A program made the position numbers and the translations under genes. Below, piece by piece: positions 25,863 to 55,083 of a stretch of DNA of 64,000 nucleotides. The stretch spans positions 4,154-68,153 of the forward strand of contig CAMWPZ010000001.1 of assembly GCA_947176305.1 (NCBI GenBank), given 5' to 3'. A model generated the notes under the pieces. That model was given only the letters and a program-made list of their open reading frames with translations, made no database searches and had not been told where the DNA came from. How positions within the stretch are numbered: position 1 is the stretch's first letter; the number at the start of each line of letters is the position of its first letter. The stretch comes from an uncultured Clostridia bacterium. Its GTDB lineage: Bacteria; Bacillota; Clostridia; Christensenellales; Borkfalkiaceae.

Positions 25863-25871
25863 ATTTTACTC

Positions 25872-27371: not shown

Positions 27372-27376
27372 TCTTT

Positions 27377-31402: not shown

Positions 31403-31432
31403 AAAAATGAGCCATAAATTCCGGCTCATTTT
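31403..31432. terminator. Intrinsic terminator, probably ending the long minus-strand transcription unit
   Basis: ATGAGCC / GGCTCAT stem (31407-31429) flanked by an A5 run on one side and a T4 run on the other. On the minus strand the stem is followed by TTTTTGTG, about 90 nt after the Smr stop. Confidence 0.5.
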
Positions 31433-31517
31433 GCATTTATAACACCCTTAATAAGCATTACAAAATTATACTGAATTATTTTTCACTGAAATTAAATTCA
31501 TTATATTCGTAATTCAA

Positions 31518-32534: not shown

Positions 32535-32577
32535 ATTAGTCCTTTGTTAAATTGTTTATAATTTTAATTTAATTAGT

Positions 32578-38124: not shown

Positions 38125-40837
38125 TTTTCACCTCAGTAAAATGATAGTTTGTTGCAGTATAAATTTGACTTGACTGTGGACTATATAAATTACCCTTCGT
38201 ATCGCACTTCAATTTAGTGTAATTCCCCACTGCGTCTTTTACATAAACTTGTAAAGCAATAGAAGAAAGTATAACAATATGACACTTCGAATACCCACAC
38301 ACGTCTGTTTTATTGCCGGTTGCATCCCTATAATGTAGTCGCGCTGAATATGTATCATTATCTTGTCCACGAACCAATTCTGTAATATAATATCCCGTTG
38401 AAATCAACTTCCATGAATCCCCTCCGCTCCCGCAAATCGGATTTATTTTTAAAACAAGATTGTTTAATTTGAGTTTTTCTCTGTCGCCGAAGACAAACTC
38501 ACCTTCCCATAATATCTTCTCGCCACTTGCAAATAACCCTGTAGAAGGAGAACTTACCTTTATCCAGTAAATACCTTCGTCGACATCAGACAAGTCACCG
38601 TTAATCAATTCAGTAGATTTTTTAACTATTTCTTCTTTACCAATGCGTTTAAGACAAATATTGAAGTAGGGCTTCTTCCCGCCGATAAAGCACTTATCTC
38701 CAATAAAAAGCAACTTACTATTATCAACAGCGAATGGTGGTTCTTGCAAAAAATGCTCTACCGTCGTTACCGAGCATATTTCCTTTTGTTCACTATTTCC
38801 ATCAAATTTAAAAAAGAACAATAGATCCTTGCAATTTTCATTTGCAAATATGTGTTTTCCGATTTCGTATTTTAACGAAGCATTTCGTGCAATTTCCTGC
38901 AATTTTCCATCAGCCAAACAATACAACTTTGTTTTGTCGATTTCTATCGGAGATTGCACCTCGAATACTGACCCATTGCTAAAATAGGTTTTATACCAAA
39001 CAATATTCGAAATTGGACCGTAGTGCCATTCTCCCATGTCAATACGCCACTTAATTTGGGGTACAGTGATAAATAAATGCCCATTACCCAACTTGCAAAA
39101 TACCGTTTCTTGCCCCGTTTCCCAAGTCAAATCTTTATGCTGTAGCCCAACGCTAACCCTAACACTTTTATCGTCATCTCCAAAATATATTTGTTTGGAA
39201 AAACCAATATGGAGTTTTTTGATTAAAACAATATCAGTATGAATCAGTTCTTTTTCTGTAAGGTGTGAATGTACGATAAATTCGCTAAGAACATATTGGG
39301 GAAATAACTTCGTTATGTCAACTATAAAATAGCCTTCATCTATATTGGGTGCTAAATCAGACAATAAAGTACTATTACCGTTTACCCTTAACTCCAAAGC
39401 GTTAACAGAAGTATTTTGAGGGAGCAACAAGTTTATTCTATTGCCAAACACTTTACAATCGTGCTCCTCATATTTCCATTTGCAAATCCCGGATTCCCCT
39501 ACAAGTTGCACTTTATTTGTTACTACTTTTGAATCCATTTCATTGGTAAAGAACACTTGCCTGTTATCACTACCTATTACTTCACCATCGTCAGGATAAA
39601 TATTATATAAATTAGCTGCAACCGTGTTTATAACAGTCGGAGTCTGCAAAGAATCAATTGATAACGAGTAAACAAAATAATTTCCAACTTTCAGAATCCT
39701 ATTTGTCAGCTCTTTTTCGTTATCAAATAATATAAAATCTTTTTCAATTGTTTTATCAAAAATGGTTTTCCCATTTTCAGCAATTTCTACCCGTATATTT
39801 ATATCAGATACTTCGCGTAGCAAATCGTTCAATTTTATATCTTGTTGAGCAGATGTTACAGTCATCTCACCAGTACGCGTAAATATTTCCTTTGAGACAA
39901 TGGGGCTTGATTGATTACAAATATATACCGACAACCAAAGTTTCGGATATTCTCCACGCGCAAATCGAATTGGTGGAACACATAAATATGTATCCTCTTC
40001 TCTGCGAAGGAATTTTATGGAAATATTTTGCTTCGGTACAGATTGTATTGGGAACTTGGATGTGTTAGGCACTGGATCGGGATCTTGCTTTTTTGCCCAC
40101 CAGTCCTTAACAAGATTTATTAAATAATCGTCATTCGACAAAGTGTGACCATGATATAAGAAATCCATTGCGGTTAAGACTTTATCGATTAATTCAGTGA
40201 AGCAATTGCGTGTTTTATATCCCAACGCCATACTGCGAAGCCCTATCTTGATTCCATACACTCCGCTTCCGATAGTGACCCCGACGTTTGCCCCGCTAAG
40301 GCTTTGCGCCACAGCACAAAATCCACTTGTTGCTATATCGCAAATCTCGGTATCCGAATCCGTATAAACAAAGTCCAAATCTTTTTTATATATGTTATAA
40401 ATAAATTCAAAGAACGAGCTTATGCTTTTATATGGAGCAAAAGCATGCATCAACACCGTAGCATAATACTTGTCTTTTGTGTCAGCCATAAGAATTTTTC
40501 CACTATCAACAAGTCCTTTAATTAAATTTGTATAGGCACTATATAGTTTTGAGCTATCACCGCCGTTCAGCATCGTTCCCAAAATATACTGCCAAAATCC
40601 TTTATCACTATCATCATCGCTTTTCCATCTTTTGGCAAGTTCAACTAATGTTGCAAAATGTATTTCATCATCGCCTGATAAATAAGAACCGATACCGAAT
40701 GCATAAGCGCGAGAATATTTTTTTGTATACGCAAAAAGCTTCTGAAACTCGTCGTCGGAATAAGAAACGATGCCTATAAGATTTTGTTCAGCAATCGCTT
40801 TGTGAACCTTTTCTTTCAATGCCTCACTAATGTCCAT
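38117..40837 (-). CDS. 906-aa protein of unknown function, partner of the DEAH/DUF1998 helicase (DruH-like by position and size)
   Basis: It overlaps the helicase gene by 8 nt. A helical N-terminus of about 260 aa is followed by repeated beta-rich modules. No nucleotide-binding or nuclease motif recognised. Confidence 0.45.
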   Translation of the reverse strand: MDISEALKEKVHKAIAEQNLIGIVSYSDDEFQKLFAYTKKYSRAYAFGIGSYLSGDDEIHFATLVELAKRWKSDDDSDKGFWQYILGTMLNGGDSSKLYSAYTNLIKGLVDSGKILMADTKDKYYATVLMHAFAPYKSISSFFEFIYNIYKKDLDFVYTDSDTEICDIATSGFCAVAQSLSGANVGVTIGSGVYGIKIGLRSMALGYKTRNCFTELIDKVLTAMDFLYHGHTLSNDDYLINLVKDWWAKKQDPDPVPNTSKFPIQSVPKQNISIKFLRREEDTYLCVPPIRFARGEYPKLWLSVYICNQSSPIVSKEIFTRTGEMTVTSAQQDIKLNDLLREVSDINIRVEIAENGKTIFDKTIEKDFILFDNEKELTNRILKVGNYFVYSLSIDSLQTPTVINTVAANLYNIYPDDGEVIGSDNRQVFFTNEMDSKVVTNKVQLVGESGICKWKYEEHDCKVFGNRINLLLPQNTSVNALELRVNGNSTLLSDLAPNIDEGYFIVDITKLFPQYVLSEFIVHSHLTEKELIHTDIVLIKKLHIGFSKQIYFGDDDKSVRVSVGLQHKDLTWETGQETVFCKLGNGHLFITVPQIKWRIDMGEWHYGPISNIVWYKTYFSNGSVFEVQSPIEIDKTKLYCLADGKLQEIARNASLKYEIGKHIFANENCKDLLFFFKFDGNSEQKEICSVTTVEHFLQEPPFAVDNSKLLFIGDKCFIGGKKPYFNICLKRIGKEEIVKKSTELINGDLSDVDEGIYWIKVSSPSTGLFASGEKILWEGEFVFGDREKLKLNNLVLKINPICGSGGDSWKLISTGYYITELVRGQDNDTYSARLHYRDATGNKTDVCGYSKCHIVILSSIALQVYVKDAVGNYTKLKCDTKGNLYSPQSSQIYTATNYHFTEVKNV

Positions 40838-40906: not shown

Positions 40907-41452
40907 TTATATATACTTTTCAACGGGATATCCAAGCAGCAACATTATTTTAAGCTCATCAAGACTATCTTTAAGCGCATTGTGCGTTTCCTGATATGCG
41001 GTGTCGCCGGTAAGCATTCTTAAAATTGATTGAACACCATATCCTGATTTAAGTCGCCCAGTTGAACACAGGGGCATTCCACGAGGGATCTTATGATTAT
41101 ATTGGATATACGCCGCTAATTTCATTATATCGAACCAATGCATGCCACCAAGTTCCGGTAGATGATTTTTATCAAATACGGAGTTATACGCAAATACTTT
41201 ACTAACGCGGTTGTTTTTGCACCAATCAATCAGATTATTAAGTGCTTCTAAACGAGAACAAATTATAGGGTTTTTAATGTCGCGATGCAGAAGGGCACCT
41301 AAATACATCCCTCCTGCACGATATTCGGGATCTAATATGTAATACTTTGATTCAAGTGGTAACATAGTATCACTGTCCGCTATAACCGCCCCAATAGACA
41401 TGACCTCATCTGTCCACGTGGTTTCAGTATCTATTACAACAAACTTCTCCAC
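40907..41452 (-). CDS. DEDDh 3'-5' exonuclease (DnaQ-like)
   Basis: 181 aa with a GTG start. Exo motifs VVIDTETTW (D-x-E), FAYNSVFDKNHL (D) and THNALKDSLDE (H-x4-D). Confidence 0.7.
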   Translation of the reverse strand: MEKFVVIDTETTWTDEVMSIGAVIADSDTMLPLESKYYILDPEYRAGGMYLGALLHRDIKNPIICSRLEALNNLIDWCKNNRVSKVFAYNSVFDKNHLPELGGMHWFDIMKLAAYIQYNHKIPRGMPLCSTGRLKSGYGVQSILRMLTGDTAYQETHNALKDSLDELKIMLLLGYPVEKYI

Positions 41453-41574
41453 TATTTGTCCTCTGTCGTATAAAATTTATCTATAGCCCTCTTGGTAACC
41501 GTCTTCGCAACAGTATCAAGAAAAGTAGCCCTGTTTGGAATTTTTATCTCAAACTTAGCATTGTTTCTTGTATT

Positions 41575-43259
41575 TCATAAAATACCTTTTGACAAACCTA
41601 ACGCAACAACGTAGCTTGCACATTGCAAAAAATGCACGTGAGAAAGCTCTGATACAAATTTTAATTCATATACTGTATCACCCCTAACCGCATCCGCAAG
41701 GCCTTTGGCAAGAAAAGCTTTTTTACCAGTTTCATAGGCAAAAGTGATTTTACACTCTGTCTGCACATTTTCATCGGGACTCAATGTTGTGTTTAACCTT
41801 TTAATTAGTGCCTTCTTTTCTTTCTTTTGAGCAAACGGCGTTGTAACCTGTTGCAGATACCTTAGCTGCCTAGTTTCTAATCTCGTTAATAAAAGTATCT
41901 TTCTGTCAAGTGAACCTGCATCTTTTTTTGAATATAATCCCTTTTCTTGTGGATGTAAGGTAAAATAAAACTCAAGGCTCTTATCTATATCATATCCACT
42001 GAAAAATACTGCCTCCTGATATATTCCTATACAGGGAGAAAGGTCAATCAACTCGTCCCTGTTTTTAATTTTTATATCTTCTAAATTTTTACTTTCAACC
42101 TCTTTTATATTCAATAAAGAGTAGCATTCTTCTATATCCTCAACATATTTAAAATCGAACATAGTAGAAATATCTATATCTTGAAAAATACATTTTCTTC
42201 AGGTTTAGACTTTAACGTGCTTTCGGAAAGTTTTTCTTCACCATTTGAAACAAAAATTATTTTCTCTTTGCCCCTACTATCTGCGATGCAGAAAATATTG
42301 CGCAGTATTTCAAATGACTGCCGGTGTTTATCTATGCGTACAGCCCAATAACTTTCTGTAAAATCAAATACTATGCATATATTCCGTTCTTAACCCTTTG
42401 CTGCTGTCAAAAGTAGTAAAAATTGCGCATGAGCTATCAGGCTCTACCGCCTTATTACCGTCATCGTCTTGTATACTTGAATATAAGGTTCTTTTATTGA
42501 AAATATCAGGATAAGTATCTTCAAGTTCGTTTTGAACATCTGACATGGCTCCGGTTCTTGAGCCGAGGCATAATATATCTTTCGGATTTTTGTCGGCAAG
42601 AAAAGCAATTACCTCTTCAGTATTCATGTTAATTATTTCGCAATTTCCGTTTAACCCAATGATTGGTTTACCCCAAATCTGTCCAAGTGTTTCCGCGTGA
42701 TTGGCAGAGAGTCTAAAACATTTTTAAACGTAAGCTTTTCATAATCACATAAAAACTTATCAATAAATTCAGGCACGTTGAGTACAGTTTTATCATATAT
42801 TTTCTGTTCCATGCCCACTACGGCGACTATCTGCATACAGGGATTAGTCGATTTTATGTATTCAAGCATTTCGGCAAATTCCTGCTCAATATCTTGATAT
42901 TCGTCTAAAATGAGGATATCAAAATGAGGTAGAGGTGACTTTACCCGAAGAAATTTTTGAACCAAATCATGAATACCGGCACTTATATTTTGTTTCTTAA
43001 GCATTGAAAACGCAAAACCGTGGTAATTAGTTACGGTAATTAATCGCCTTTTTATCTTCTTGCGCGCATCAAGTTTTAAAAGCTTGTTATAAGTAAGATA
43101 TAAAATTTTACAATTTAATGGAAGCTCTTCGCACAAGTGCTGTATAGCAGTTATTTTACCGCTACCTATACAGGCATCGACAAGTATATTTTTGCCTTGC
43201 TTAGCACCTTCAATAAATTTAAGTTGTTCATCGGATAAGTTAATTTTAAAATTAGACAT
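41575..43259 (-). pseudogene. UvrD-type SF1 helicase fused to a RecB/Cas4-type PD-(D/E)xK nuclease, disrupted at three or more points
   Basis: Fragments in three frames. 43259..42651 carries Walker A CIGSGKIT and motif II ILILDEYQD. 42627..42364 carries FTTFDSSKGL. About 42390..42174 reads ERNICIVFDFTESYW...IIFV then TAG. 42162..41575 carries nuclease motifs GLADAV, VYELKF and FLQCASY (QxxxY). Lesions: a frameshift in the T5/A5 run at 42721-42725, a 1-nt frame change near 42391, and TAG at 42176..42174. The reading frame also continues 41 codons past the TGA at 41575. Confidence 0.65.
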
Positions 43260-43274
43260 GCTTATACTCTTAAT

Positions 43275-45788
43275 TTATGAAAAATTGATATATTCCTCAA
43301 TTAAATTTAAATAATGCAAAGGTACCGGTAAGTTGGTTACAGAATTATATTCAGGAGAAAGATACCTTAACTGGTTCAAGAAGTTTATAACTTCAAATGA
43401 ATCATCATTTTCACATAAACTTAAAGGAAAATATTCTGATAACTTTTTTCCTTTATATGATTTATTAGAATTAGAAAAGCTATACTCTTTATTCCCATCA
43501 CTGTATGTCCTATCGTTCCTCTTTTCGGTAACACTTGCGTAATAAACTTCCCTATATTTAAAAATTCCATCAGCAGATCCGGTCGCGTTATAGCCATCGG
43601 TAAAATAATAATTAGGTATCTCCTCATTATCCCTGATTCTTACAACTCGAAGTTTAGAATTATTCAAGTTAAATGAAACTGAACAAATCTTGCTGCCTAT
43701 ATCGATATTATAAGGTCTATAATCGCTCATAAAAGAATACGTGCTTATTTTTTTATTAGAAATTCCCGGCCACAACTCACTTCTAACAAATCCATCACCG
43801 GATACAATTACAATTGCATCTTGATAGCGATAATAATTTTCCAAGCCTTTAATTTTTTGCTCTATATATCTTTTTGATGCTTCAAGACACAGCTTGTCAC
43901 AATCCCTGTTCATTGATAGTTTACAAAATTCTATACAAGCTTGATAATAGCTCGTTGGTAAGCCATTATTCACCACTGGGCTTTCAACAGTAATTTGCCT
44001 GTCGTTTATATCATACTTTACCAACATAGGTACAGCACGTATAGTTGTACCCGACATGGTTTTTACATTTGAATGCGCACCAATAGCCAAAACGGGATAT
44101 CTTAAAAATTTATCAAGTTTAGTAGCGCGTTTTGTATAGCCAAATTGGCGAAGTAAATCATATATCGCAACCGATATTTTATGTGGCATCCCGTTAACCT
44201 CTTTTATATCGTTTTCCTCTATTGGATTAATAAACTGAGTAACGCGATTAGTCAATGCAAAGCCACAACGTAACAGGTTTTTCGCATCTTTAACGTTTTT
44301 ATCGTCTTGGTTTTTGGGTAGGATTATAATACTACCGACCATTAAATTCTTTGGAGCCTGTCCTATGCTTTCACTAACTTGCTTAATCCTCTCTGTTCTT
44401 TTGGATATGTTATTGTAATCTTGAATTAAAATAGGATCAGCAAAATTTTTTAATGGAAGCTTTTGTATATCTATTCCAAAATCTTCAGTATTTTTATCAA
44501 TTATAACCCTTAAACTATCTTCTATTTTTTGCGCCAATTCATTATCATTGCTTAACGAATAGATTTCTATTCTCGCCCCGCTAAAACCCGTCTTGGATAA
44601 GCATTCACAAATATCAATCCCATTTGGGGCCCATGTATCTTTGTTTTCTTTTAATGGCGCGGGATTTAATCTCGCAGACCTTGCTTTTACTTTAATTAGT
44701 GGATCGCTCTTTGATACTGATTCTTTAATTAATTCATAAATCGCATTATAAAGCGCAACTTTATCAAGAGCGCTTATTCCCGTTCCGATTTTAGATTCCC
44801 ACGCATTGCTGTTTTGTGTTGAACGAGTGCAATAAATCTGCGGATTACTTTTTGTTTCATCATTGTAAAGCTCTAATCTATTCAAAACGTCATCTGCTTT
44901 CGGTAAACTATTAGGGTACGCAAAGTTGTAACAGCTTTCATCGGCATCTTTCCAAACTACTTGATCCTTAATATAGTCATAGAACATAGGAATCTTATAG
45001 TAAATAGGCTTGTTATTGTGTTTAACATAAACACTCATGTTGTTTTTTAAATACTTTTTTGAACGCGCCGATGTATTTTTAAATATTCTTCTGCTACAGT
45101 TTAAAAGCAACATCGAAGAAGTAGTATTCTGTCCCGGAATTGTTTGTAGCCCAAAAGAAAACACGTAGGCATATAAGTCGCCTTTATATCCTTTAATAAC
45201 TTGCGACATCAACTCATTGCGCCCAGAATAATTCAACACCAACTCTGTATTGTCGTAAACAATAGATTTACCAATCATACTCTCCATCAATTTAAGGCAA
45301 AAGCCGTTGTAAGCATATTGGCTTGTTATTATTCCGTTTTCGTCAATAATCTCCAAATATTCGGTATTAATATAATTTAACAACTCTTGCGGATTTATCA
45401 AGTTGATAAATTTAGTTAATGCCTCTTGCACCCCATCATTCTTTTGATACTTAACATAAAATGATTGTGCCGCCGCTTGCAAATTAATGCAAATATCTTG
45501 GCATACATATTTGTCTATTTCCTTTAAGCAAACAATCCACTTTGAATCATCGCTTCCCTTGCGCATACTGTTAATTTCAATTAACCCATGCACCCAGTTG
45601 GCGCAAATTTGATTGAGCGCACTGCATAAAGGTAAATTATACTTATCGTAGTCATATTTTGGATTTGCCGTAATTGCTAGTTCAACCAAGCATTCCTTCC
45701 ATAAAGGAGGAAATCCAACAGTATAAGTTTTAATCGTTAAAGCTTTCGGGATAAAAGTCATCATCTGAAGCTGTTTTTGTTGACTCAT
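43275..45788 (-). CDS. pPIWI-RE-type Argonaute-like protein
   Basis: 837 aa with no P-loop. The C-terminal third carries PIWI-like strands: PVLAIGAHSNV, AIVIVSGDGFVRS and the terminal LPVPLHYLNLIEEY (compare human AGO2 GADVTH, YRDGVSEGQ, PAPAYYAHLVAFRARY). It is the third gene after the REase and the DinG-like helicase. The start is uncertain (45788, 45764 or 45761), and all candidates overlap the helicase gene end. Confidence 0.6.
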   Translation of the reverse strand: MSQQKQLQMMTFIPKALTIKTYTVGFPPLWKECLVELAITANPKYDYDKYNLPLCSALNQICANWVHGLIEINSMRKGSDDSKWIVCLKEIDKYVCQDICINLQAAAQSFYVKYQKNDGVQEALTKFINLINPQELLNYINTEYLEIIDENGIITSQYAYNGFCLKLMESMIGKSIVYDNTELVLNYSGRNELMSQVIKGYKGDLYAYVFSFGLQTIPGQNTTSSMLLLNCSRRIFKNTSARSKKYLKNNMSVYVKHNNKPIYYKIPMFYDYIKDQVVWKDADESCYNFAYPNSLPKADDVLNRLELYNDETKSNPQIYCTRSTQNSNAWESKIGTGISALDKVALYNAIYELIKESVSKSDPLIKVKARSARLNPAPLKENKDTWAPNGIDICECLSKTGFSGARIEIYSLSNDNELAQKIEDSLRVIIDKNTEDFGIDIQKLPLKNFADPILIQDYNNISKRTERIKQVSESIGQAPKNLMVGSIIILPKNQDDKNVKDAKNLLRCGFALTNRVTQFINPIEENDIKEVNGMPHKISVAIYDLLRQFGYTKRATKLDKFLRYPVLAIGAHSNVKTMSGTTIRAVPMLVKYDINDRQITVESPVVNNGLPTSYYQACIEFCKLSMNRDCDKLCLEASKRYIEQKIKGLENYYRYQDAIVIVSGDGFVRSELWPGISNKKISTYSFMSDYRPYNIDIGSKICSVSFNLNNSKLRVVRIRDNEEIPNYYFTDGYNATGSADGIFKYREVYYASVTEKRNDRTYSDGNKEYSFSNSNKSYKGKKLSEYFPLSLCENDDSFEVINFLNQLRYLSPEYNSVTNLPVPLHYLNLIEEYINFS

Positions 45789-48700
45789 AATTTACATTCT
45801 CCTTTAATGCGTTATAAAATGATTCATATAATACTTTCGCTACATATCCATCCGTTTTTATCAAATAATCTATGTAATCACATATTTCTTTTAATATTTC
45901 AAAAGACCAGTCTCCTCTTCCGCCGTTGAAAGCGCCGTCAGCGAAATAAATTCTTGGCGGCTCCCCAATTTTCGATATGTCGCTAACTCTGGCAGACCTA
46001 CCATAAATTTGGTCCAACATAATGAATACGGTGGCGACTACATCTTTCTTGCTTTCATCCGATAAAAACCTAAGTCCTGCTACACTATCCTTCTGCATCA
46101 TATCCCAAAATTTTCCTGCTTCAGTTTTTACTTTATCAGAAAACATACCCCAATCATAAACGCTTGCATTGCAAAACCGCATTGAAATATAGCCGTTTAA
46201 TTTACTGACTTTTAAGGATATATCATCAGGTACCGACATCGGCCTTACTAAAAAGAATATGCTTCTTATTGCTGAATTGGCGTTCTTATCTAATATGTTA
46301 TATCCCCTACATATAACGGCTGCCGGAGCAACAAGAATCTTCTCTTCCGCGTCGTCAAAATAAATAAGGTCATTTTTTCTTAACATACCATTTTCTGAAC
46401 GTGTTTCGTCATCACGAATTAATACAGCACATTTGTGCGCACTCTTAATATCATTAAGTAGCCTTTTAGTATGAATCCAAGTTTCATGCGCTTCGTCATA
46501 ACTATTGACAATAAACAAAATCTTCCCCGACTTATTTAATTCTGCTTCTATATCTGGACGTATTTCATAAAGTAATTTTGAAATTCGCTCTTCTCTCCCA
46601 TCTTTACTTCCGCCCGAAATAACTGTAGTTGCGCCACACGTGCGTATTATTGATTTACTTAAGTAATTAGTTGTTTCCTCTGAAGATTCAAGTATATAAT
46701 TCACCGGAGCATTTATATGGTATTGTAACGATCCGGGAGCATAACTTGAGCCAGAAAGTAAAATAGCATGTGGACCCAAAGGGGAACCTTCCTCATTGAC
46801 TTTCAACCACGGCAAAGAAAGCATCAAATATCTACCGCAGGCATATTGCCTGTATATTTTAAGTTTTTCATCAGATTTTGAATACATCATACCAAAAATA
46901 TTACCCATTGGTGCCGAGGGTAAGAATTTTTGTTGGGTTATAAATCTTGCTTGCAAAAAATCTGATATGTTATTGTTTCGAAGCACTTCTCTATCAACCG
47001 ATTTCGCAGCATCATCTATTCTGTATACAAATCTATCAAAGAAAATAACCTTTAGAAGTAGTTGTATATGACGATAATCTTTTTTATCGATATTTATTTT
47101 ATGATTCGAAAATAATCTATCAAGTCTTACGGCGACATGACTATCTTCTCTACAAGAGCCATCTATAATTTCAGACAATTGGTTCGTCAAATCATTATTA
47201 TACAATATATCTTCATTTTGCACGTTAACACATTGCCTCAACGCATCTTCTAATTTCTGGTCAATTTTATCAGAATGCATTCTTTCAATTAACGTAAGAG
47301 CAGAAAACGTTGACGTAACTAGATTTTTCCAAGCACCTTTTTCTGTCTTTATAAGCTCATCTATATCATAAGATATTGCATCATAAACAGATATCGCATC
47401 ACGGGTAAGATTAAAGAATCTTCTTTCGTTTCTGTCTCTGTCAACCGCCGAATGATTCTTTTTCATATCAACCGCGCTGGCATCTGCTTGTGAATTTATA
47501 AAATCGTTAAATGCAGTATTCGGTGCAAAAAAATCATCTAACGTATTTTGCACCCTGTCACATTCATCAAACATTACCACATCAAAATTGTCTATTACCT
47601 CTTCTAAAAAAAGATGATGATTTTTACCTATAAATGAAGCCGCCAAACCAGCCACAGTAGTAATTACTATTGAAGATTTTTCAGCCTCTCGAAGCATTGC
47701 TGACCCCGGACACATTTCAAAAAATGAGCACCTATATTTCCCGAAATGTTTTTGTTCAGTATCGCACGAATGTAGATTATAACAAGGTCTTTCACTAAAT
47801 TCCCAAGCTGTTTTATTTTCGTTATTTAATCCGTTTAAAATGCAAGGCGCCGATAAATACCTTGCAATATCTTCTTCAATGTATTTTTCGCCTTTTTTTA
47901 ATAGTGAATAGGAGTATTTCTCTTGATTTGATTTACCAACCAATGGAGAAACAGATATTGATAATTCCTTAAAATATTTGTAGTATTCAATAACTTCATT
48001 GATTGAATTTAAAACAATTACTGCCCTATATCCCTTTTCAGCAAGATAAAAGCTTATGACCTTTAATAATGTACTTTTGCCTGAACCTACCATGCCTACA
48101 ATGTTAACCACATCTTCTATGTTCAAAATATTACTTCTATTTTTTACATTTACTAATTTGTTTTTAGTTAAAACATTATAACAATAGTCGTCTGCTTTTA
48201 TATCTTTCATTTTTAAAGTAGTTTTTAATAAATCCTCATATGTTATTTCAATTTTTTTTCTTCGATTTTTAAGACTTTTTTCTTCGGCAACACTTTCAAT
48301 TCGACAATCAAAATTATTGGGAATATCGATAGTAACAGCCTGTTTATCTTCTCGATAAAATTTATATCTGCCAGCATTTGCAGTTGGCATATCTCTTTGT
48401 ATTTTTTCTTTTGAATTAATATAGTCCCAATAATACTGTTCTCTATCTGAAACAGGAATAATTTTATCCGTTTTTACTAAAATATTGTTCTCAACATTAT
48501 AAAGTCGAATATTCTCATACCGCTTGTCCATATATAAGTAAAAATCTTTTTCCCACTGCATTTTGGATGCATAAACAAGGAATTTCATTCTTGCTTGTTG
48601 TAACCAAAACAGTTGTTCACTCTTTAAGCTATGGTTTATTAATTGATATCCTCTTAAAAGAACATAAGCTTTTGATGGATTCAATGTCGGTGACACTTTT

Positions 48701-48810
48701 AATAAAATACACAAAACATTTTCAATTTTTAAAAAAGTAGAAAGACTTAATTCGCTAAAATCGTCGAAATAGCCTTTTAGGGCTTTTTTAAGTAATTCTA
48801 TATTAGCCAT
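45730..48810 (-). CDS. DinG/XPD-like helicase with putative Fe-S cluster (pPIWI-RE island helicase)
   Basis: 1026 aa. Walker A GMVGSGKSTLL, Walker B VVMFDECDR and motif VI QIYGRSAR. A four-Cys patch PCYNLHSCDTEQKHFGKYRCSFFEMCPG lies between Walker A and B. Confidence 0.65.
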   Translation of the reverse strand: MANIELLKKALKGYFDDFSELSLSTFLKIENVLCILLKVSPTLNPSKAYVLLRGYQLINHSLKSEQLFWLQQARMKFLVYASKMQWEKDFYLYMDKRYENIRLYNVENNILVKTDKIIPVSDREQYYWDYINSKEKIQRDMPTANAGRYKFYREDKQAVTIDIPNNFDCRIESVAEEKSLKNRRKKIEITYEDLLKTTLKMKDIKADDYCYNVLTKNKLVNVKNRSNILNIEDVVNIVGMVGSGKSTLLKVISFYLAEKGYRAVIVLNSINEVIEYYKYFKELSISVSPLVGKSNQEKYSYSLLKKGEKYIEEDIARYLSAPCILNGLNNENKTAWEFSERPCYNLHSCDTEQKHFGKYRCSFFEMCPGSAMLREAEKSSIVITTVAGLAASFIGKNHHLFLEEVIDNFDVVMFDECDRVQNTLDDFFAPNTAFNDFINSQADASAVDMKKNHSAVDRDRNERRFFNLTRDAISVYDAISYDIDELIKTEKGAWKNLVTSTFSALTLIERMHSDKIDQKLEDALRQCVNVQNEDILYNNDLTNQLSEIIDGSCREDSHVAVRLDRLFSNHKINIDKKDYRHIQLLLKVIFFDRFVYRIDDAAKSVDREVLRNNNISDFLQARFITQQKFLPSAPMGNIFGMMYSKSDEKLKIYRQYACGRYLMLSLPWLKVNEEGSPLGPHAILLSGSSYAPGSLQYHINAPVNYILESSEETTNYLSKSIIRTCGATTVISGGSKDGREERISKLLYEIRPDIEAELNKSGKILFIVNSYDEAHETWIHTKRLLNDIKSAHKCAVLIRDDETRSENGMLRKNDLIYFDDAEEKILVAPAAVICRGYNILDKNANSAIRSIFFLVRPMSVPDDISLKVSKLNGYISMRFCNASVYDWGMFSDKVKTEAGKFWDMMQKDSVAGLRFLSDESKKDVVATVFIMLDQIYGRSARVSDISKIGEPPRIYFADGAFNGGRGDWSFEILKEICDYIDYLIKTDGYVAKVLYESFYNALKENVNYESTKTASDDDFYPESFND

Positions 48811-49921
48811 TTTTTAACTCCGCCTTTATCATCTTTTTCAACATGCTCATAGAAATACAACTAAAATTGCTGTTCTGGACTGCGCTATTACAAATTTTTA
48901 GATATGCAACATTTTTCTTAATAATTTTATCTGAGATAACATAAAAACCTTTATCTATATTTGCATTATAAAATTTATTGTCAGTCTTTATAGCCTTACT
49001 CAGAGTATAAGGGTTTGCAAAAGTTTTCGCATCAATCCCCCAACAAGTTCCATTAGAGAACACTATCTTAATATCGTAACGGTCCAATTCAGGCCATAAT
49101 TCATTATTTAAATTAAATTGATTACAAAAATCATGTATTTCAAATTCTAATTTGCCTGGATAGCTTATGTATCTTGCAACCCCTTGTTTGAGCCTCAATG
49201 CGAATTCTTCACCTACAACATCTAAATCTGTTCTTTTAAATTTCACTCCATCTATACAATCAAAATGACAGCATTTTGGTTGTATACCCTTAAATGATAT
49301 AGTCCATCCGCAATTGGGACACTTATACATTTCTTCCGGCATATTTTCATATGCTTCATTTAAAATATTCTGAATAGCTTGATCTGTATTGTATTTTATT
49401 AAAAAACTATTTCGCTTTCTAATAGTCAGTAAAGGATTCTCAATTAAGAATTGACGAACTGCCACATATTTTTCTTGCGATAAATCTTTCATTAAATTAT
49501 ATACTTGATGTTCATCAATTGCTGATAAATCATTTTCCGTCACTTCAAGATAGTCCAAGCACTCATCGGAAAGTTCGTAACTTTTTTCATTTTTCTTTAA
49601 ATAAATTAATTGTCCCATTTCCCAAAATGGTTCTTTTTGTAATTGTTCTAAAGCAACATTACTCCATTCTTTGAACCATGTTTTTACTGGTAAAGTAAAC
49701 CTATTGCAAATCATTTCTGTTTCATTTAAAGTGGTTAAATAATTTTTTAAATCCTCACCTTCTTTGGCGACATATTGCAAAGCTAAAGCACAAAACATAT
49801 TTATTCCTTGACGAAGCAATAATCCCGTTCGATACTGCTCGGGATCATCGCTTGAAAGTTTCTCTTTAAGCCCAAAAGCAATATGCGCAAACATTTTTTC
49901 AAATATAGCATCTCGTTCCAT
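48803..49921 (-). CDS. Restriction-endonuclease-fold protein with Zn ribbon (pPIWI-RE island REase)
   Basis: 372 aa. CPNCGW...CCHFDC ribbon, then PD-(D/E)xK-like elements KLEFEI, LDRYDIKIV and WGIDAKT. 8-nt overlap with the helicase gene. Confidence 0.6.
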   Translation of the reverse strand: MERDAIFEKMFAHIAFGLKEKLSSDDPEQYRTGLLLRQGINMFCALALQYVAKEGEDLKNYLTTLNETEMICNRFTLPVKTWFKEWSNVALEQLQKEPFWEMGQLIYLKKNEKSYELSDECLDYLEVTENDLSAIDEHQVYNLMKDLSQEKYVAVRQFLIENPLLTIRKRNSFLIKYNTDQAIQNILNEAYENMPEEMYKCPNCGWTISFKGIQPKCCHFDCIDGVKFKRTDLDVVGEEFALRLKQGVARYISYPGKLEFEIHDFCNQFNLNNELWPELDRYDIKIVFSNGTCWGIDAKTFANPYTLSKAIKTDNKFYNANIDKGFYVISDKIIKKNVAYLKICNSAVQNSNFSCISMSMLKKMIKAELKNG

Positions 49922-49935
49922 CTATTTTCATCCTT

Positions 49936-49971
49936 AAAAAAATCCGTCCTTCAAAACACTGAAGGACGGAT
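49936..49971 (-). terminator. Intrinsic terminator inside the 5' leader of the REase/helicase/pPIWI operon
   Basis: Perfect 12-bp stem ATCCGTCCTTCA / TGAAGGACGGAT (49942-49971) with a 6-nt loop. On the minus strand it is followed by a T7 run, then AAGGATG and the ATG at 49921. Confidence 0.65.
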
Positions 49972-50097
49972 TATTGTTTATCTTTGATTATTCAAAGCGC
50001 TAATCGCATTTAAAGTAAATTGCAACAATTCATTCACCCAAATGGTTGTCTACAAAATTACCTATACTACATATTGTGTTTTTTCTAGGACAATTGC

Positions 50098-50126
50098 ATA
50101 TTAACATACAAATAATCCTTTGTCAA
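50098..50126 (-). promoter_or_regulatory. Candidate sigma-A promoter driving the leader of the pPIWI-RE operon
   Basis: Minus strand TTGACA (50126..50121), 17-nt spacer, TAATAT (50103..50098). The predicted start is about 170 nt upstream of the REase ATG. Confidence 0.4.
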
Positions 50127-50481
50127 GCTTTTTAGAAAAATAATTAATTCTTGATATGTTTACACTATGGCAACATAATTAGACGAGCGCTTTTTCGCAC
50201 GAAACAATAGTTGATAGATTAAATCTGACAGCTATCGTGTTCTTCGATTATTCTATATTATATATTTTATAAAATTGCATTCAACACGAAAATGGTATAT
50301 CTTACAGACTATAATTTAAGAGTAATTTTTTTCTTGGGCCCATATTGCGTCAGAAAATTTGGACTTGCGATGCCGATATTGCTAGTTTAAAGCTCGCTGA
50401 GCGTATCAAGTAACCAGCAAGTCAAATAGAAAAATTTTTGCTTGTTCCATTATAAAAACCGCAAGACAAGCTATAACACAA

Positions 50482-50510
50482 TTGAACAAATTGAAAAATT
50501 GTAGTATAAT
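50482..50510 (+). promoter_or_regulatory. Candidate sigma-A promoter of the DUF262 gene
   Basis: TTGAAC (50482-50487), 17-nt spacer ending in TG, TATAAT (50505-50510). GGAG at 50531-50534 precedes the ATG at 50545. Confidence 0.5.
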
Positions 50511-50544
50511 AAATCTACTAATTTTCAAATGGAGCAATAAGTTT

Positions 50545-52302
50545 ATGCCATATAAAAATGAAAGTATTTCTTCTATGGTAGAAAATATCGACAAAAAGCA
50601 GTTTTATCTGCCAGCAATTCAGAGAAAATATGTATGGGGAGAAGAGCAAATTACTAAATTAATGGATTCCATAATGAGAGGATATCCTTTTGGTACATTT
50701 CTATTTTGGAAAGTAAAAAAGAAGACTGTTAACACAAAACAATATTCAATGTATGAATTTATAAAAGATTATCACGAACGGGATAACTATAAAAACCTGC
50801 CCGCAGGACAACCATTTACAATTCATAATAACGATGAAACAATCTCAGCAGTATTAGATGGACAACAACGGCTCACCTCGTTATATATCTCGCTAAAAGG
50901 TAGTTTGAGTTTTAAATTACCAAGAAAACATTGGAGTAGTGATGACGCTTTTCCGAAGAAAGAATTATACCTTGATTTACATAGTACTGGCGAGAGTAAT
51001 GAAGGAGAAATTGCTTATAACTTTGCGTTTTTTACTGAGGAAGAATTTAATACCCTTTCGAAAGATAAAATATGGTTTAAGGTTAAAAATATTTTACAAT
51101 ACAAAGACATCACCGATTTAAATCAATTTCTTATATCGCAAAATTGGGTTACAGACACATTATTAACAAAAAACATTGCGCGGTTACAACAATGCCTTCA
51201 AGATAACGGAATTATTAATTATTTTGAAGTCGAATCCGACACTATTGATGATGTGTTGGATATTTTTGTGCGAGTAAACTCGGGAGGAACAGTTTTATCT
51301 AAAACTGATCTGCTTTTCTCGACAATTGTTTCGTATTGGGATAGGGGGCGTGAAGAAATAGATAATCTTCTTTCATCCATAAATAGAATTGGCGATCATT
51401 ATAAATTCACCAACGACTTTATAATGCGTGCGTGTCTTTATATCACAGATTTGCCAATCGCTTTAAAAGTTGAAACATTTGGTAAGAGCAATGTAGAACT
51501 AATAAAAAATAAATGGGACAATATTCAGTCGGCTATAAAAGATACTGTTAAGCTACTAAATAACCTAGGTTTTAACGCGGAAAATATTATCGCAGATACG
51601 GCAATTTTACCTATAATTTTTTATCGCTATCAATATGGGGCCAAAGCTTTTATAAATGATACTATTAAAAAGAGAGTAGTCTTTGATGTGCAATTGGAAA
51701 TCAGAAAATATCTTGTCATCGCTCAGATTAATCATGTATTTGGACAATCGACTAACAGTACTTTAACCGCAATACGTAAAGAGCTAAAAACTCATTCCAC
51801 TAAATTCAAACTGTCTTATTTGCAAAATATGACATTCTCGGGTGATAAAAATTTGAAATGCCGTAAAGAAGATATTTTAAATTGGTTTGATAATTTTGAA
51901 AAAAACGCATATACATTTATGCTGTTAACCCTACTCTATCCCAATTTAAAGTTCGGGCAAAATGCTTTCCATCAGGATCATATGCATCCATTTTCCGCAT
52001 TTGATGACGACACCGTATTGAAAAGCCTTAAATTACCTAAACAAAGCGGTATAATGGATAATATTAAAATTCAAAGTTGGAGACATCAAAGAAATACTCT
52101 AGCAAATTTACAGATTTTAGAAGAGCGAGAAAACGAATCTAAAAATGACGAGCCGTTAATTGATTGGATTAAACGTCCAGAAAATGCTCAAAATGTAAAA
52201 TATTTACCTCAAAATATTGATTATAATTTATTAAATTTCGATGAGTTTTTGGAAAAACGAAAAGGTTTAATGGTTGATGCTTTAGAAAAAATTCTCCTAT
52301 AA
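50545..52302 (+). CDS. DUF262 / DUF1524 (GmrSD-like) type IV restriction-type nuclease
   Basis: The start is taken at ATG 50545 (MPYKNESISS). N-terminal DUF262/ParB-like block YLPAIQRKYVWGEEQITKLMDSIMRGYPFGTFLFW. C-terminal His-Me finger-like block HQDHMHPFS...NTLANLQILEERENESKND. Confidence 0.7.
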   Translation: MPYKNESISSMVENIDKKQFYLPAIQRKYVWGEEQITKLMDSIMRGYPFGTFLFWKVKKKTVNTKQYSMYEFIKDYHERDNYKNLPAGQPFTIHNNDETISAVLDGQQRLTSLYISLKGSLSFKLPRKHWSSDDAFPKKELYLDLHSTGESNEGEIAYNFAFFTEEEFNTLSKDKIWFKVKNILQYKDITDLNQFLISQNWVTDTLLTKNIARLQQCLQDNGIINYFEVESDTIDDVLDIFVRVNSGGTVLSKTDLLFSTIVSYWDRGREEIDNLLSSINRIGDHYKFTNDFIMRACLYITDLPIALKVETFGKSNVELIKNKWDNIQSAIKDTVKLLNNLGFNAENIIADTAILPIIFYRYQYGAKAFINDTIKKRVVFDVQLEIRKYLVIAQINHVFGQSTNSTLTAIRKELKTHSTKFKLSYLQNMTFSGDKNLKCRKEDILNWFDNFEKNAYTFMLLTLLYPNLKFGQNAFHQDHMHPFSAFDDDTVLKSLKLPKQSGIMDNIKIQSWRHQRNTLANLQILEERENESKNDEPLIDWIKRPENAQNVKYLPQNIDYNLLNFDEFLEKRKGLMVDALEKILL

Positions 52303-54407: not shown

Positions 54408-54408
54408 T

Positions 54409-55083
54409 CTATTCTCCTAATATTAAAACTCTGTCATATATAGCCGACCAGTCTTCTCCGTCCCTGTCCTTGTGATGATGACCGAAGAACCATTTTTTAT
54501 ATGCAGCCTTTTTTCTGACATCTTCAAGGTAATTATTTAATTCAATTTCCTGATCAATCAAAGGTATCCACATTTCATATGCCATTTGTTTGGGCGCAAC
54601 GTGAGAAAGCATATAGTCAACCTTATAATTGTATTTCGTCAAATTTTTTAGTCCGTTTAAATATTCTTCTTCACTTGGCATTTCCTGTTCCCATACATTT
54701 ACTGGAGAAGAATTCGTCAATTTTTTCAAGGAAAAGCCGCCTCCGAAAACGAAAAACGTTTTATTGTCTATCGTATAAATCTCTCCACGCATGAGATGAA
54801 ATATTTTATCACTGATTTTACGAACTTCCCCACCAAAAGCTTTAACTATGGGGTATGTTTCCAACAAATCAAAGTTTTCGTGATTGCCGTCAAGAAACAG
54901 CGTTGTCAGCGGTAGGTTGTCATAAAACGATTGCACTTCTTTATGTTCCGTTTCGCTCCATATAATTCCCGCGTCACCGAGAATAATAAGATAATCTCTA
55001 TCCGTAAGCGTATATGATTGCAACAGCTTTTTTAACTTTTCTAATCTGATATGCCCGTGTATATCCGACGCCAAATATATCAT
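54409..55083 (-). CDS. Metallophosphoesterase (calcineurin-like)
   Basis: The start is taken at ATG 55083 (MIYLASDIHGH), giving an ATGA overlap with the upstream gene. Motifs DIHG, ILGDAG, GNHEN and GHHH. Confidence 0.75.
   Translation of the reverse strand: MIYLASDIHGHIRLEKLKKLLQSYTLTDRDYLIILGDAGIIWSETEHKEVQSFYDNLPLTTLFLDGNHENFDLLETYPIVKAFGGEVRKISDKIFHLMRGEIYTIDNKTFFVFGGGFSLKKLTNSSPVNVWEQEMPSEEEYLNGLKNLTKYNYKVDYMLSHVAPKQMAYEMWIPLIDQEIELNNYLEDVRKKAAYKKWFFGHHHKDRDGEDWSAIYDRVLILGE

Follow-up and report, generated by a model that had tools for sequence, protein, structure and literature searches.

The window, comprising the whole 64,000-nucleotide stretch of DNA analysed, was found to carry three minus-strand ORFs, each overlapping its neighbour, at positions 48803-49921 (372 aa), 45730-48810 (1026 aa) and 43275-45788 (837 aa), with overlaps of 8 nt and 59 nt. 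These positions agree exactly with those in the preliminary description of this DNA, and every peptide motif quoted there was located in the translations. As the ORFs are 372 to 1026 codons long in DNA with a G+C content of 30-35%, they are not due to chance. A Shine-Dalgarno sequence was identified at each of the three start codons (AAGGA, AAGGCGGAG and AAAGGAG, respectively), and comparison with relatives gave dN/dS values of 0.07-0.12 across the three genes. Their products are a restriction-type nuclease (REase) subunit, a helicase and a PIWI protein, encoded in this strict order with overlapping ends, and the same order and overlapping ends were found in every related locus with enough flanking sequence. 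No methyltransferase gene was identified in the operon.

All three proteins scored above the Pfam curated cut-offs for pPIWI-RE families, upholding the assignment that had been made from sequence. The PIWI protein matched pPIWI_RE_X, MID_pPIWI_RE and RNaseH_pPIWI_RE (63.4, 52.0 and 62.4 bits; cut-offs 30.5, 26.6 and 25), the helicase matched pPIWI_RE_Z (58 bits) and the nuclease matched pPIWI_RE_REase (71.5 bits; cut-off 26.1). Searches with PADLOC gave PprRE (E-value 1.5e-22), PprDinG (2e-110) and PprPIWI (5e-61). The locus is a complete, intact pPIWI-RE (PIWI-RE, PADLOC 'Ppr') three-gene system. This kind of system is already known and computationally defined, and the window locus is a further member of it. 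Neither the helicase nor the nuclease matched any other defined defence system with PADLOC. Hachiman, which consists of a HamA (DUF1837) nuclease and a HamB helicase, was considered and rejected, with no Ham models among the PADLOC matches of either protein. The distribution of pPIWI-RE is patchy, 1.84 billion proteins yielding only 437 cluster representatives, and close relatives of the window system are few (29 clusters at 90% identity).

Comparison with the available part of the original description of pPIWI-RE (Burroughs, Iyer and Aravind 2013, PMC3702460; pAgo type III) showed that the domain families X-MID-PIWI, Z-DinG and (Y)-ZnR-REase are all shared, as are the strict gene order, the overlapping ends, the lack of a methyltransferase, the conserved Arg and Glu of the PIWI protein, the helical element past its first beta-meander, and the Cys-rich putative Fe-S region and helical insert of the helicase. 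The window copy differs in belonging to a divergent Clostridia clade with Pfam scores of only ~52-72 bits. This clade also possesses a specific conserved leader (a terminator and a complementary block) and, in some members, a downstream pair of genes for a UvrD-like protein and a DEDDh exonuclease, neither of which appears in that part of the 2013 description. The statement in the preliminary description that the split three-gene form is uncharacterised stands insofar as no study of a whole system was found in the literature, but the PIWI subunit has been studied alone in Pseudomonas stutzeri (PMC10991935). No report of protection by any three-gene pPIWI-RE system was found in the literature, nor was experimental work on the mechanism of a complete system.

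The REase subunit (gene 1, 48803..49921, minus strand) possesses an N-terminal helical region with a weak match to domain Y (PADLOC pPIWI_RE_Y, 0.0015), followed by a Zn ribbon (C201, C204, C217 and C222) and the residues of a PD-(D/E)xK nuclease (E259, D283, D297 and K299). None of these Cys ligands or E/D/D-x-K residues varies among 14 loci, in which identity falls to ~35%, and the dN/dS of the gene was 0.09-0.12. An REase fold with a Zn ribbon and an N-terminal Y domain, and with no methyltransferase partner, is the arrangement of pPIWI-RE nucleases, the Y domain being weakly matched here.

The second gene (45730..48810, minus strand) encodes domain Z and an XPD/DinG-type SF2 helicase, with Walker A at G239-T247, Walker B at D415-E-C-D418 and motif VI at Q934-R941. 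A helical Arch-like insert is situated at ~434-630. A four-Cys patch had been proposed as the site of an Fe-S cluster. Its location between Walker A and Walker B was borne out, but C349 within the patch varies among 45 homologues and the fourth ligand precedes the patch. The conserved putative Fe-S ligands are C323, C343, C361 and C367, each invariant across the 45 homologues. Together, these features (a DinG-clade SF2 helicase with an N-terminal Z domain, a Cys-rich putative Fe-binding region and a large helical insert) are those of the pPIWI-RE helicase. In a Foldseek search with the AF2 model of this protein (pLDDT 84.5, pTM 0.86), ranks 1-23 were occupied by XPD, DinG and CasDinG, with DdmD at rank 24 (8u0w, E 1.5e-6). 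A weak match to the PADLOC model typeIV_DinG was also obtained.

The third gene (43275..45788, minus strand) encodes the pPIWI-RE protein of 837 aa with domain X, MID and PIWI/RNase H regions. Its PIWI-like nature, suggested previously from the sequence, was supported by the Pfam and PADLOC matches and by a confident AF2 model (pLDDT 81.4, pTM 0.82) with an Argonaute/PIWI fold, for which the best 50 Foldseek matches were all long Argonaute/PIWI proteins. A model lacking a PIWI/RNase H fold would have counted against the assignment. Within the model, strands 566-576, 582-593 and 598-603 are followed by helices 614-625 and 630-653 and then by strand 658-663, so that an extra alpha-helical element follows the first three-stranded beta-meander of the RNase H fold. 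The segment at 665-704, just past D665, is modelled with a pLDDT below 50. The Arg and Glu specific to the family are present as R717 (strand 713-719; in 130 of 134 family members) and E785 (strand 784-790; in 132 of 134), and from their order and spacing they are taken to correspond to R639 and E718 of PsPIWI-RE.

Using the family alignment and a comparison of motifs with TtAgo, which places residues by sequence motifs rather than by structural superposition, the columns of the catalytic tetrad were found to hold G570, E602, D665 and N828, with E602 tentative since it is assigned as the glutamate finger by spacing only. The column of the first catalytic Asp is occupied by Gly570 (VLAIG570AHS, compared to VIAIDA in relatives and LAVGFD478 in TtAgo). 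The preliminary description had reported this Asp as replaced by His, thereby naming the wrong residue, as His572 is located two residues further on. The fourth position is also lost, being Asn828 (LPVPLHYLN828 compared to LPAPLHLAD660 in TtAgo), while His825 is conserved and non-catalytic. Thus, the protein lacks the complete DEDX tetrad of a slicer-active, long-A type Argonaute, having G570 at the position of TtAgo D478 and N828 at that of D660, with D665 retained. The idea of a non-slicing Argonaute that recruits an effector is strengthened by this, because two tetrad positions are lost and not one. Sister proteins of the same Clostridia clade possess D-E-D-D or D-E-D-N, compared to G-E-D-N in the window, and in the wider family position 1 is mostly W, H or Y. 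The dN/dS of the PIWI gene was 0.07-0.10. Given the D-E-D-D sisters and a dN/dS of ~0.1 in all three genes, the PIWI protein is most likely a maintained, non-cutting sensor. By analogy with DdmDE, it would most likely be directed by guides and pass targets on to both its partners, the helicase and the restriction-type nuclease.

It is highly improbable that the PIWI protein is still a nuclease which slices with RNA or DNA guides, leaving the helicase and REase as accessories that serve, for example, in guide generation. Such a role is known for PsPIWI-RE of P. stutzeri (Huang et al. 2022, PMC10991935), which is of the same family and the same three-gene context (its dinG gene overlaps piwi-re) and which acts as an RNA-guided ssDNA nuclease. 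The retention of D665 and of the candidate glutamate E602, and the full D-E-D-D tetrad of sister proteins, would agree with it. However, PsPIWI-RE has both catalytic Asp residues (D525 and D610), and substitution of either one (D525A or D610A) abolishes its cleavage (PMC10991935), whereas the window protein has Gly and Asn at the first and fourth positions. Furthermore, an intact REase is found throughout the family, although the tetrad is missing from most of its members.

Upstream of the operon, a consensus scan identified a predicted sigma-70-type promoter (50098..50126, minus strand), whose function is inferred, with a -35 hexamer TTGACA (50126-50121), a 17-nt spacer and a TGn-extended -10 hexamer TAATAT (50103-50098). 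Across 12 loci with proteins down to ~30% identity, the -35 hexamer does not vary and the -10 region is conserved. A block of 89% identity common to the window and locus L001 starts at 50145, just upstream of this promoter. At or near the predicted transcript start lies a 5' leader block, TGTCCTAGAAAAAACAC (50076..50092, minus strand), conserved in all leaders. Further downstream, a terminator scan identified a hairpin, AATCCGTCCTTCAGTGTTTTGAAGGACGGATT (49936..49972, minus strand), with a predicted stem of ~13-14 bp and a T-run resembling an intrinsic terminator. About 15 nt separate the end of this hairpin from the REase start codon, and the Shine-Dalgarno sequence AAGGA (49935-49931) directly follows the hairpin. 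It occurs as a single copy in the window and likewise in each related locus, where the REase gene invariably lies downstream of it, and the three copies with the hairpin loop found by a metagenome scan (L022, L026 and L029) each lie ahead of a pPIWI-RE REase gene. The hairpin is 100% identical among loci with 47-57% protein identity, with compensating stems in L016, L018 and L019. No Rfam family matched the leader.

Through sequence complementarity, the 5' block TGTCCTAGAAAAAACAC could pair with the loop of the hairpin and with its 3' arm, making the block a candidate antiterminator strand. The predicted duplex between them has an energy of -13 to -17.7 kcal/mol in nine of nine leaders, with only 0-2 of 300 shuffles being as good. 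Block and hairpin covary in three versions (CAC/GUG, UAUC/GAUA and AAU/AUU), and 88% of cells pair in alignment A6, compared to 39-58% in slid controls. From these sequence features, the leader, with its terminator hairpin and covarying complementary 5' block, is a candidate attenuator.

The best explanation overall, and a moderately probable one, is a pPIWI-RE trio under leader control in which a non-slicing, guided PIWI sensor passes targets to the helicase and nuclease. The operon would be transcribed from its own conserved predicted promoter through the leader with the terminator-like hairpin, and as the complementary 5' block can compete with this hairpin, expression is probably attenuated. 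The PIWI protein would bind a short nucleic-acid guide via its conserved MID region and would be unable to slice because Gly570 and Asn828 occupy two of its four catalytic positions. Pairing of guide and target on an invading replicon would then recruit or activate the Z-domain Fe-S helicase of XPD/DinG type, which would move 5'-3' and unwind DNA. The target is probably single-stranded or transcribed (R-loop) DNA, a proposal made by Burroughs et al. (PMC3702460). The Zn-ribbon PD-(D/E)xK nuclease, with its catalytic residues intact, would cut the DNA. Physical association of the three proteins is suggested by the operon structure only.

This scheme would follow the logic of DdmDE of Vibrio cholerae, with helicase and nuclease as separate polypeptides and the Fe-S cluster kept. 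DdmD, in which a PD-(D/E)xK nuclease is fused to a helicase resembling DinG, is recruited there by DdmE, a pAgo that lacks the tetrad (10.1101/2024.05.10.593530). Thus, a tetrad-less Argonaute-like sensor, an XPD/DinG-like 5'-3' SF2 helicase and a PD-(D/E)xK nuclease are shared. In contrast, DdmDE consists of two genes with helicase and nuclease fused, whereas the window system has three genes and encodes the nuclease on its own, as a Zn-ribbon protein. In addition, the INS domain of DdmD has no Fe-S cluster, whereas the window helicase has four invariant Cys residues, and DdmE is classed as a 'long-C' pAgo, not pPIWI-RE (10.1101/2024.05.10.593530). DdmE was absent from the best 50 Foldseek matches of the PIWI model, no chain of DdmD or DdmE was retrieved from the PDB by sequence or profile search, and neither was among the PADLOC matches at E <= 0.01, although PADLOC-DB v2.0.0 may not contain DdmDE models. 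Membership of DdmDE was therefore rejected on account of the separate genes, the fold-level DdmD match of the helicase being the only link.

A fairly unlikely alternative is abortive infection, in which target recognition would free the REase and helicase to act on all DNA, so that the host is killed or arrested rather than selectively cleared of the invader. The characterised long-B, short and SiAgo-like pAgo systems with an inactive PIWI act by abortive infection (PMC11333966), and the conserved leader, with its terminator, is consistent with a toxic operon being tightly controlled. However, DdmDE, the closest functional analogue, processively degrades the targeted plasmid and does not kill the cell; the sequence itself holds nothing that separates the two outcomes. 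Long-B pAgo-nuclease (BPAN) and short pAgo systems resemble the window system in that a catalytically inactive PIWI senses and an associated effector acts, but they belong to different pAgo clades, lack a DinG helicase and have effectors whose activation serves a collateral or abortive response. Type IV-A CRISPR-Cas shares the design of a guide-directed surveillance complex with a DinG-family helicase, CasDinG, which is among the top structural matches of the window helicase. The window differs in having an Argonaute-like sensor, no CRISPR array and no Cas proteins, a helicase with an N-terminal Z domain and putative Fe-S ligands, and a dedicated REase.

The trio is situated in a defence island of low G+C content within the genome of a gut Clostridia bacterium, probably a Christensenellaceae-like one. 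Neighbouring genes encode a type I R-M system, a Drt4-like RT, DruE and GmrSD/HEC-05. The three genes move together and have varying neighbours, for example BREX in L004, and both the neighbours and this mobility support a defence role. A housekeeping module for replication or repair (e.g. relief of R-loops or topological stress) is distinctly improbable by comparison with immunity. In P. stutzeri, deleting piwi-re made cells more sensitive to ciprofloxacin and changed their division, and the authors, who studied PsPIWI-RE alone, favoured a role in replication (PMC10991935); DinG-family helicases also act on R-loops, as cited in PMC3702460. The defence genes of the island, the patchy distribution of the family and the change of neighbours between genomes all argue against such a role.

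Immediately downstream of the trio, starting 16 nt past the PIWI stop codon, is a pseudogene with multiple frameshifts (41437..43259, minus strand) of an SF1/UvrD-like helicase of 608 aa bearing a PD-(D/E)xK-like motif in its C-terminal part, identified by tblastn with the intact L001 protein. The match alternates between two reading frames, with in-frame stops and Walker A changed from GSGKT to GSGKI. The decay of this neighbour shows that some erosion is under way in the island. That the trio is itself a decaying remnant, no longer functional in its host genome, is nevertheless barely credible. This pseudogene and the catalytic residues lost from the PIWI protein would fit such decay, but the three ORFs are full-length, the ATPase, Fe-S, Zn-ribbon and nuclease residues are all intact, dN/dS is ~0.1 throughout the G-E-D-N sub-lineage, and the promoter and leader are intact.

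The pseudogene is followed by an intact ORF of 181 aa for a DEDDh-type 3'-5' exonuclease (40907..41452, minus strand; PADLOC DEDDh, a Cas-associated model, 4.5e-9). The UvrD-like gene is intact in L001, L006, L010, L011, L015 and L026, in all of which the DEDDh gene directly follows it; it is also frameshifted in L012 and L022 and absent elsewhere. The UvrD-like gene is an accessory or hitch-hiker outside the core trio. Modelled on prespacer processing by Cas4 and Cas2-DEDDh, the pair may have a role in guide processing. A larger and more regulated system than the textbook triad, in which the leader acts as an RNA switch (terminator and covarying antiterminator block) gating expression while the optional UvrD-like/DEDDh pair makes or trims guides for the non-slicing PIWI, is rather improbable. 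If this were so, a comparative series (D-E-D-D and G-E-D-N sisters that have or lack the accessory pair) would already exist in nature and could show how this Argonaute class obtains guides and passes targets to an Fe-S helicase and nuclease. The intact UvrD-like protein matched Pfam AAA_19 and UvrD-helicase, with PDDEXK_3 below threshold, and the dN/dS of the DEDDh exonuclease was 0.13-0.16.

Three overlapping minus-strand genes were identified in the ORF list of the window, encoding a REase of 372 aa (48803-49921), a helicase of 1026 aa (45730-48810) and a PIWI protein of 837 aa (43275-45788). Each start codon is preceded by a Shine-Dalgarno sequence, and the overlaps between the ORFs are 8 nt (ATGGCTAA) and 59 nt. 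This arrangement had been reported in a preliminary description made from the sequence alone, and every peptide motif quoted there was found to be present on translation. The trio lies within a block of approximately 30-40% G+C that begins at around 25 kb and occupies the remainder of the window; the first 25 kb have a G+C content of approximately 50%. The 837-aa protein was found to possess the Pfam domains pPIWI_RE_X, MID_pPIWI_RE and RNaseH_pPIWI_RE, with pPIWI_RE_Z located at the N-terminus of the 1026-aa protein and pPIWI_RE_REase in the C-terminal third of the 372-aa protein, all above curated cut-offs. The full-length PADLOC models PprPIWI (5e-61), PprDinG (2e-110) and PprRE (1.5e-22) were also matched. 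Hachiman had been raised as a competing assignment, and no model for it or for any other defined system competed among the PADLOC matches to the trio. As defined by Burroughs et al. 2013 (PMC3702460), the pPIWI-RE system comprises a REase that has both a Zn ribbon and the helical domain Y; a DinG-type helicase in which domain Z is accompanied by a Cys-rich region and a helical insert; and a PIWI protein with a conserved arginine and glutamate. The three are encoded in strict gene order with overlapping ends, and the features of the window trio agree with this definition. The trio is a real, intact pPIWI-RE three-gene system, as had been proposed, and adds a further member to a known, computationally defined kind. 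No name was found in public records for the exact window protein sequences, near-identical members of their 90%-identity clusters bear only the labels "DUF3962 domain-containing" or "hypothetical", and no NCBIfam model matched the trio proteins.

The trio, with its gene order conserved, was found at 16 genome loci and on several metagenome contigs (related loci and contigs carrying the trio or its leader are referred to here as L001 to L029). All trio-bearing relatives are gut or rumen MAGs of Clostridia, with taxa including Christensenellaceae/Christensenella, 'Scatousia', Ruminiclostridium and Ruminococcus. The genes neighbouring the trio vary among loci, with BREX present in L004 and a Y1 transposase fragment in L003, and the trio with its promoter is therefore regarded as a mobile unit. 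A block of 14.4 kb (window 50145-35728) was found to be 89% identical to L001. Comparison of the PIWI protein to PLSDB plasmids and INPHARED phages using tblastn gave no match. Genes for an RNase III (with a dsRBD) and a Thg1-like protein (tRNA-His guanylyltransferase family) were identified at 5936-7610 of L001/L002, upstream of the pPIWI-RE operon with one opposite-strand gene between, a pair that is unusual beside an Argonaute-like system.

Close relatives of the PIWI protein were few, with a word-indexed search giving only 29 at 45-91% identity and a repeat with their alignment as query returning the same 29 proteins; an exhaustive profile search identified 437 cluster representatives among 1.84 billion proteins. 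The claim that the 837-aa protein is Argonaute-like was examined using an AlphaFold2 model built from a 30-sequence alignment (pLDDT 81.4, pTM 0.82), and the PIWI fold was found. The best 50 Foldseek matches in the PDB were all full-length Argonaute/PIWI proteins, among them CpAgo, Aa-Ago, MpAgo, KmAgo, MIWI and human AGO1/2, with E-values down to 1e-16 and alignments of approximately 900 columns. Sequence searches of the PDB with the PIWI protein, its clade profile (A1) and its wide-family profile (A3) gave nothing meaningful, and no solved relative of the PIWI protein or of the helicase was visible by this means.

An hhalign comparison of A3 with the single sequence of the reference Argonaute TtAgo gave only a weak match in the MID region (probability 11.6%), and for this reason the catalytic tetrad was placed by direct motif comparison with TtAgo together with family columns, neither profile alignment nor structural superposition being used for the placement. 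The window protein was found to read G-E-D-N. At the first position, Gly570 (VLAIG570AHS) stands opposite TtAgo D478 (LAVGFD478), with relatives carrying VIAIDA; the glutamate finger E602 (TtAgo E512) is tentatively assigned by spacing only; Asp665 is kept (IVSGD665GF, TtAgo LLLRD546G); and at the fourth position the aspartate is lost, with Asn828 (LPVPLHYLN828) opposite TtAgo D660 (LPAPLHLAD660). Loss of the first slicer Asp had been noted previously and is borne out, but the replacing residue is glycine rather than the histidine then named, and the loss at position four is additional. Sister proteins of the same Clostridia clade, 54-57% identical to it, have either D-E-D-D or D-E-D-N, and across the wider family position one is mostly W, H or Y. 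The two namesake residues are retained almost throughout, R717 in 130 and E785 in 132 of 134 family members, and are placed on neighbouring strands in the predicted model. The MID residues K503, R507, R515, Q518, D544, R547 and Q548, near-invariant family-wide, are all present in the window protein, with Q518 lying opposite TtAgo Q433 in the weak hhalign match, the latter being a 5'-phosphate ligand. In comparison with G-E-D-N relatives, dN/dS of the PIWI gene was 0.07-0.10, equal to the values for the helicase and REase, indicating that the tetrad-less PIWI protein is maintained by selection. Residues 665-704 (window 43677-43796), the segment directly behind the retained Asp665, are strongly conserved in the clade, with R669, W673 and G675-N678 invariant, and were modelled with a pLDDT below 50 and without secondary structure; going by the model, this segment may become ordered only upon binding nucleic acid or a partner.

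Among 45 homologues of the helicase, down to 30% identity, Walker A (GMVGxGK[ST]T), Walker B (DE[CS]D) and motif VI (QxxGRxxR) were found to be invariant, as were C323, C343, C361 and C367. The patch of four cysteines formerly proposed to hold an Fe-S cluster is upheld in part, as four invariant cysteines exist, but C349, inside the patch, varies. The AlphaFold2 model of the helicase (pLDDT 84.5, pTM 0.86) displays a long helical insert at approximately 434-630, and its Foldseek matches at ranks 1-23 were XPD, E. coli DinG, CasDinG and TFIIH XPD, followed at rank 24 by DdmD (8u0w, E 1.5e-6). The designation as a DinG-like Fe-S helicase is consequently supported at the level of modelled fold and predicted ligands. 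A PDB sequence search with the helicase gave only P-loop noise, and an exact look-up returned no contig carrying the 100%-identical homologue P0030. The helicase gene was present as two ORFs in L005 and L013 (5971-9059), separating domain Z from the helicase core, and was broken near the C-terminus in L014 (6968-10059), suggesting that trios intact in other respects decay occasionally, or that the assemblies contain errors.

In 14 loci, down to approximately 35% identity, the Zn ribbon of the REase (CPxCGWT...C...C; C201, C204, C217, C222) was invariant, along with PGKxE259, YD283I and W[GA][IV]D297-x-K299. The invariance of these nuclease residues indicates that the REase active site is intact in systems with the tetrad and in those without it.

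Of the current pAgo classes (long-A, long-B, short, SiAgo-like and PIWI-RE), only PIWI-RE was without a reported mechanism or immune strategy in the literature searched, and it is given as a class with no assigned immune strategy (PMC11333966). The statement that the split three-gene form had not been characterised holds for the whole system, for which a full-text literature search found no experimental characterisation, but not for its PIWI subunit. PsPIWI-RE, whose gene overlaps a dinG gene, was studied alone and is an RNA-guided ssDNA nuclease for which D525 and D610 are essential and R639 and E718 dispensable (PMC10991935). In DdmDE, a tetrad-less pAgo with 5'-P DNA guides recruits DdmD, a DinG-like helicase without an Fe-S cluster that is fused to a PD-(D/E)xK nuclease (10.1101/2024.05.10.593530). 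If the R-loop model that Burroughs et al. proposed is joined to the DdmDE precedent, a guide-loaded PIWI protein would by analogy act as a non-cutting sensor of invader nucleic acid; the helicase would be recruited and unwind in the 5'-3' direction, and the REase would cut after unwinding. Close variants exist with and without a tetrad and all of them evolve under purifying selection, which argues that the system can do without slicing and has the REase as its effector. Unlike DdmD, the window helicase possesses invariant predicted Fe-S ligands, providing a handle on whether the cluster matters for immunity. Nothing at the window locus contradicts expectation, and it represents a clean, intact example of the pPIWI-RE system from gut Clostridia; as PADLOC would call it automatically, the locus alone leaves the mechanism gap for PIWI-RE as it is. 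Within the clade, slicer-plus and slicer-minus variants occur naturally, alongside an Fe-S helicase and a candidate leader switch.

A predicted promoter and leader of approximately 170 nt were identified on the minus strand upstream of the REase gene (49922-50130). Downstream of the promoter (TTGACA, 17 nt, TGnTAATAT), which is conserved at all loci, come a conserved block (TGTCCTAGAAAAAACAC), approximately 100 variable nt and a hairpin, its stem predicted at approximately 13-14 bp, with a T-run ending just ahead of the Shine-Dalgarno sequence. The hairpin is 100% identical among loci with just 47-57% protein identity, between which synonymous divergence has reached saturation (dS 1.3-2.3 even for L003), and in L016, L018 and L019 it is swapped for different, still self-complementary stems. 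A generic repeat or terminator was rejected, as the hairpin occurs once per locus and, in a metagenome-wide scan, only copies with its loop sequence preceded a pPIWI-RE REase gene, the five matches with other loops having no pPIWI-RE gene nearby. A leader peptide was likewise rejected, since the short leader ORF was not conserved when the sequences were read, and no Rfam family was found when the region 40-52 kb was scanned at E <= 1.

The 5' block is a near reverse complement of the hairpin loop and 3' arm. RNAalifold on full leaders recovered the hairpin alone because MAFFT had set distant leaders out of register, and the block-loop pairing was assessed using per-sequence duplex energies and a trimmed alignment. 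Duplex energies between block and hairpin were -13 to -17.7 kcal/mol in nine of nine leaders, compared to only -4 to -10 kcal/mol for other windows of the same leaders, and were matched by 0-2 of 300 shuffled controls. Three covarying block/loop versions were found (AAAACAC/GUGUUUU, CGAAAAAUAUC/GAUAUUUUUCG and GAAAAAAU/AUUUUUUC); in the trimmed alignment 88% of cells pair, versus 39-58% in slid registers, and three block-loop pairs change on both sides. As the sequences are few and related, this covariation is suggestive and not proof. Such repeats may possibly be a DNA-level operator or an invertible segment, but G-U-compatible changes in L005 and L006 weakly favour RNA pairing. The leader is put forward, from its sequence, as a candidate terminator/antiterminator transcription attenuator, and together with the recurrent accessory genes described below it could explain control of expression and perhaps guide supply.

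In two separate sub-clades, L001/L006/L010 and L011/L015/L026, the PIWI gene is immediately followed (at 3-18 nt) by genes for a UvrD-like protein and a DEDDh exonuclease. The UvrD-like protein is an SF1 helicase of 608 aa with a C-terminal PD-(D/E)xK-like motif (a sub-threshold PDDEXK_3 match), and an intact copy is present at L001:15546-17372. The window copy (41437-43259, minus strand), starting 16 nt past the PIWI stop codon, is a pseudogene that carries frameshifts and in-frame stop codons and whose Walker A is mutated, and this decay indicates that the trio is independent of the accessory helicase. The DEDDh exonuclease of the window is intact (181 aa; 40907-41452, minus strand; PADLOC Cas-associated DEDDh model, 4.5e-9), and its gene is a constant companion of the UvrD-like gene. 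The pair is absent from the remaining loci, and the UvrD-like gene was rejected as a fourth core gene, being absent at many loci and decayed by frameshift in three (L012, L022 and the window). The pair may be an optional guide-processing (trimming) module or an unrelated hitch-hiker; alternatively, it could be an independent two-gene defence pair.

The trio lies within a defence island. Divergent from the pPIWI-RE operon and just outside the block shared with L001 is a GmrSD-family type IV restriction gene (50482-52302, plus strand; PADLOC HEC-05, 6e-184). On the minus strand at 33331-40837, a DruE-type helicase of 1597 aa (PADLOC, 6e-166) carrying an MrfA Zn-binding domain is encoded with an overlapping 906-aa protein, for which no match was found in Pfam, PADLOC or NCBIfam. 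A distant relative of the latter (approximately 22% identity) lies beside a DruE homologue in L016, and the two window genes could together form a Druantia type III-like system in which the 906-aa protein is a divergent DruH. A type I R-M operon (22572-30027, minus strand) comprises HsdR (22572-25862), HsdS (27377-28504) and HsdM (28501-30027), with a Drt4-like antiviral reverse transcriptase (25872-27371, minus strand) located between hsdR and hsdS and scoring 407 bits with NCBIfam Drt4, just below the cut-off of 450. The drop in G+C starts at this insertion. The interval separating the R-M operon from the DruE gene encodes Fic/DOC, Smr-domain and GNAT acetyltransferase proteins (30006-33081, minus strand), possibly as toxin-like or accessory cargo of the island. 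A series of proteins with BspA-type leucine-rich repeats (52377-59386, minus strand) was also identified, including one with an AAA_14 ATPase N-terminus (52377-54407) and a glycosyltransferase-Sel1-LRR fusion (55080-57749), both on the minus strand, with a calcineurin-like phosphoesterase between them.
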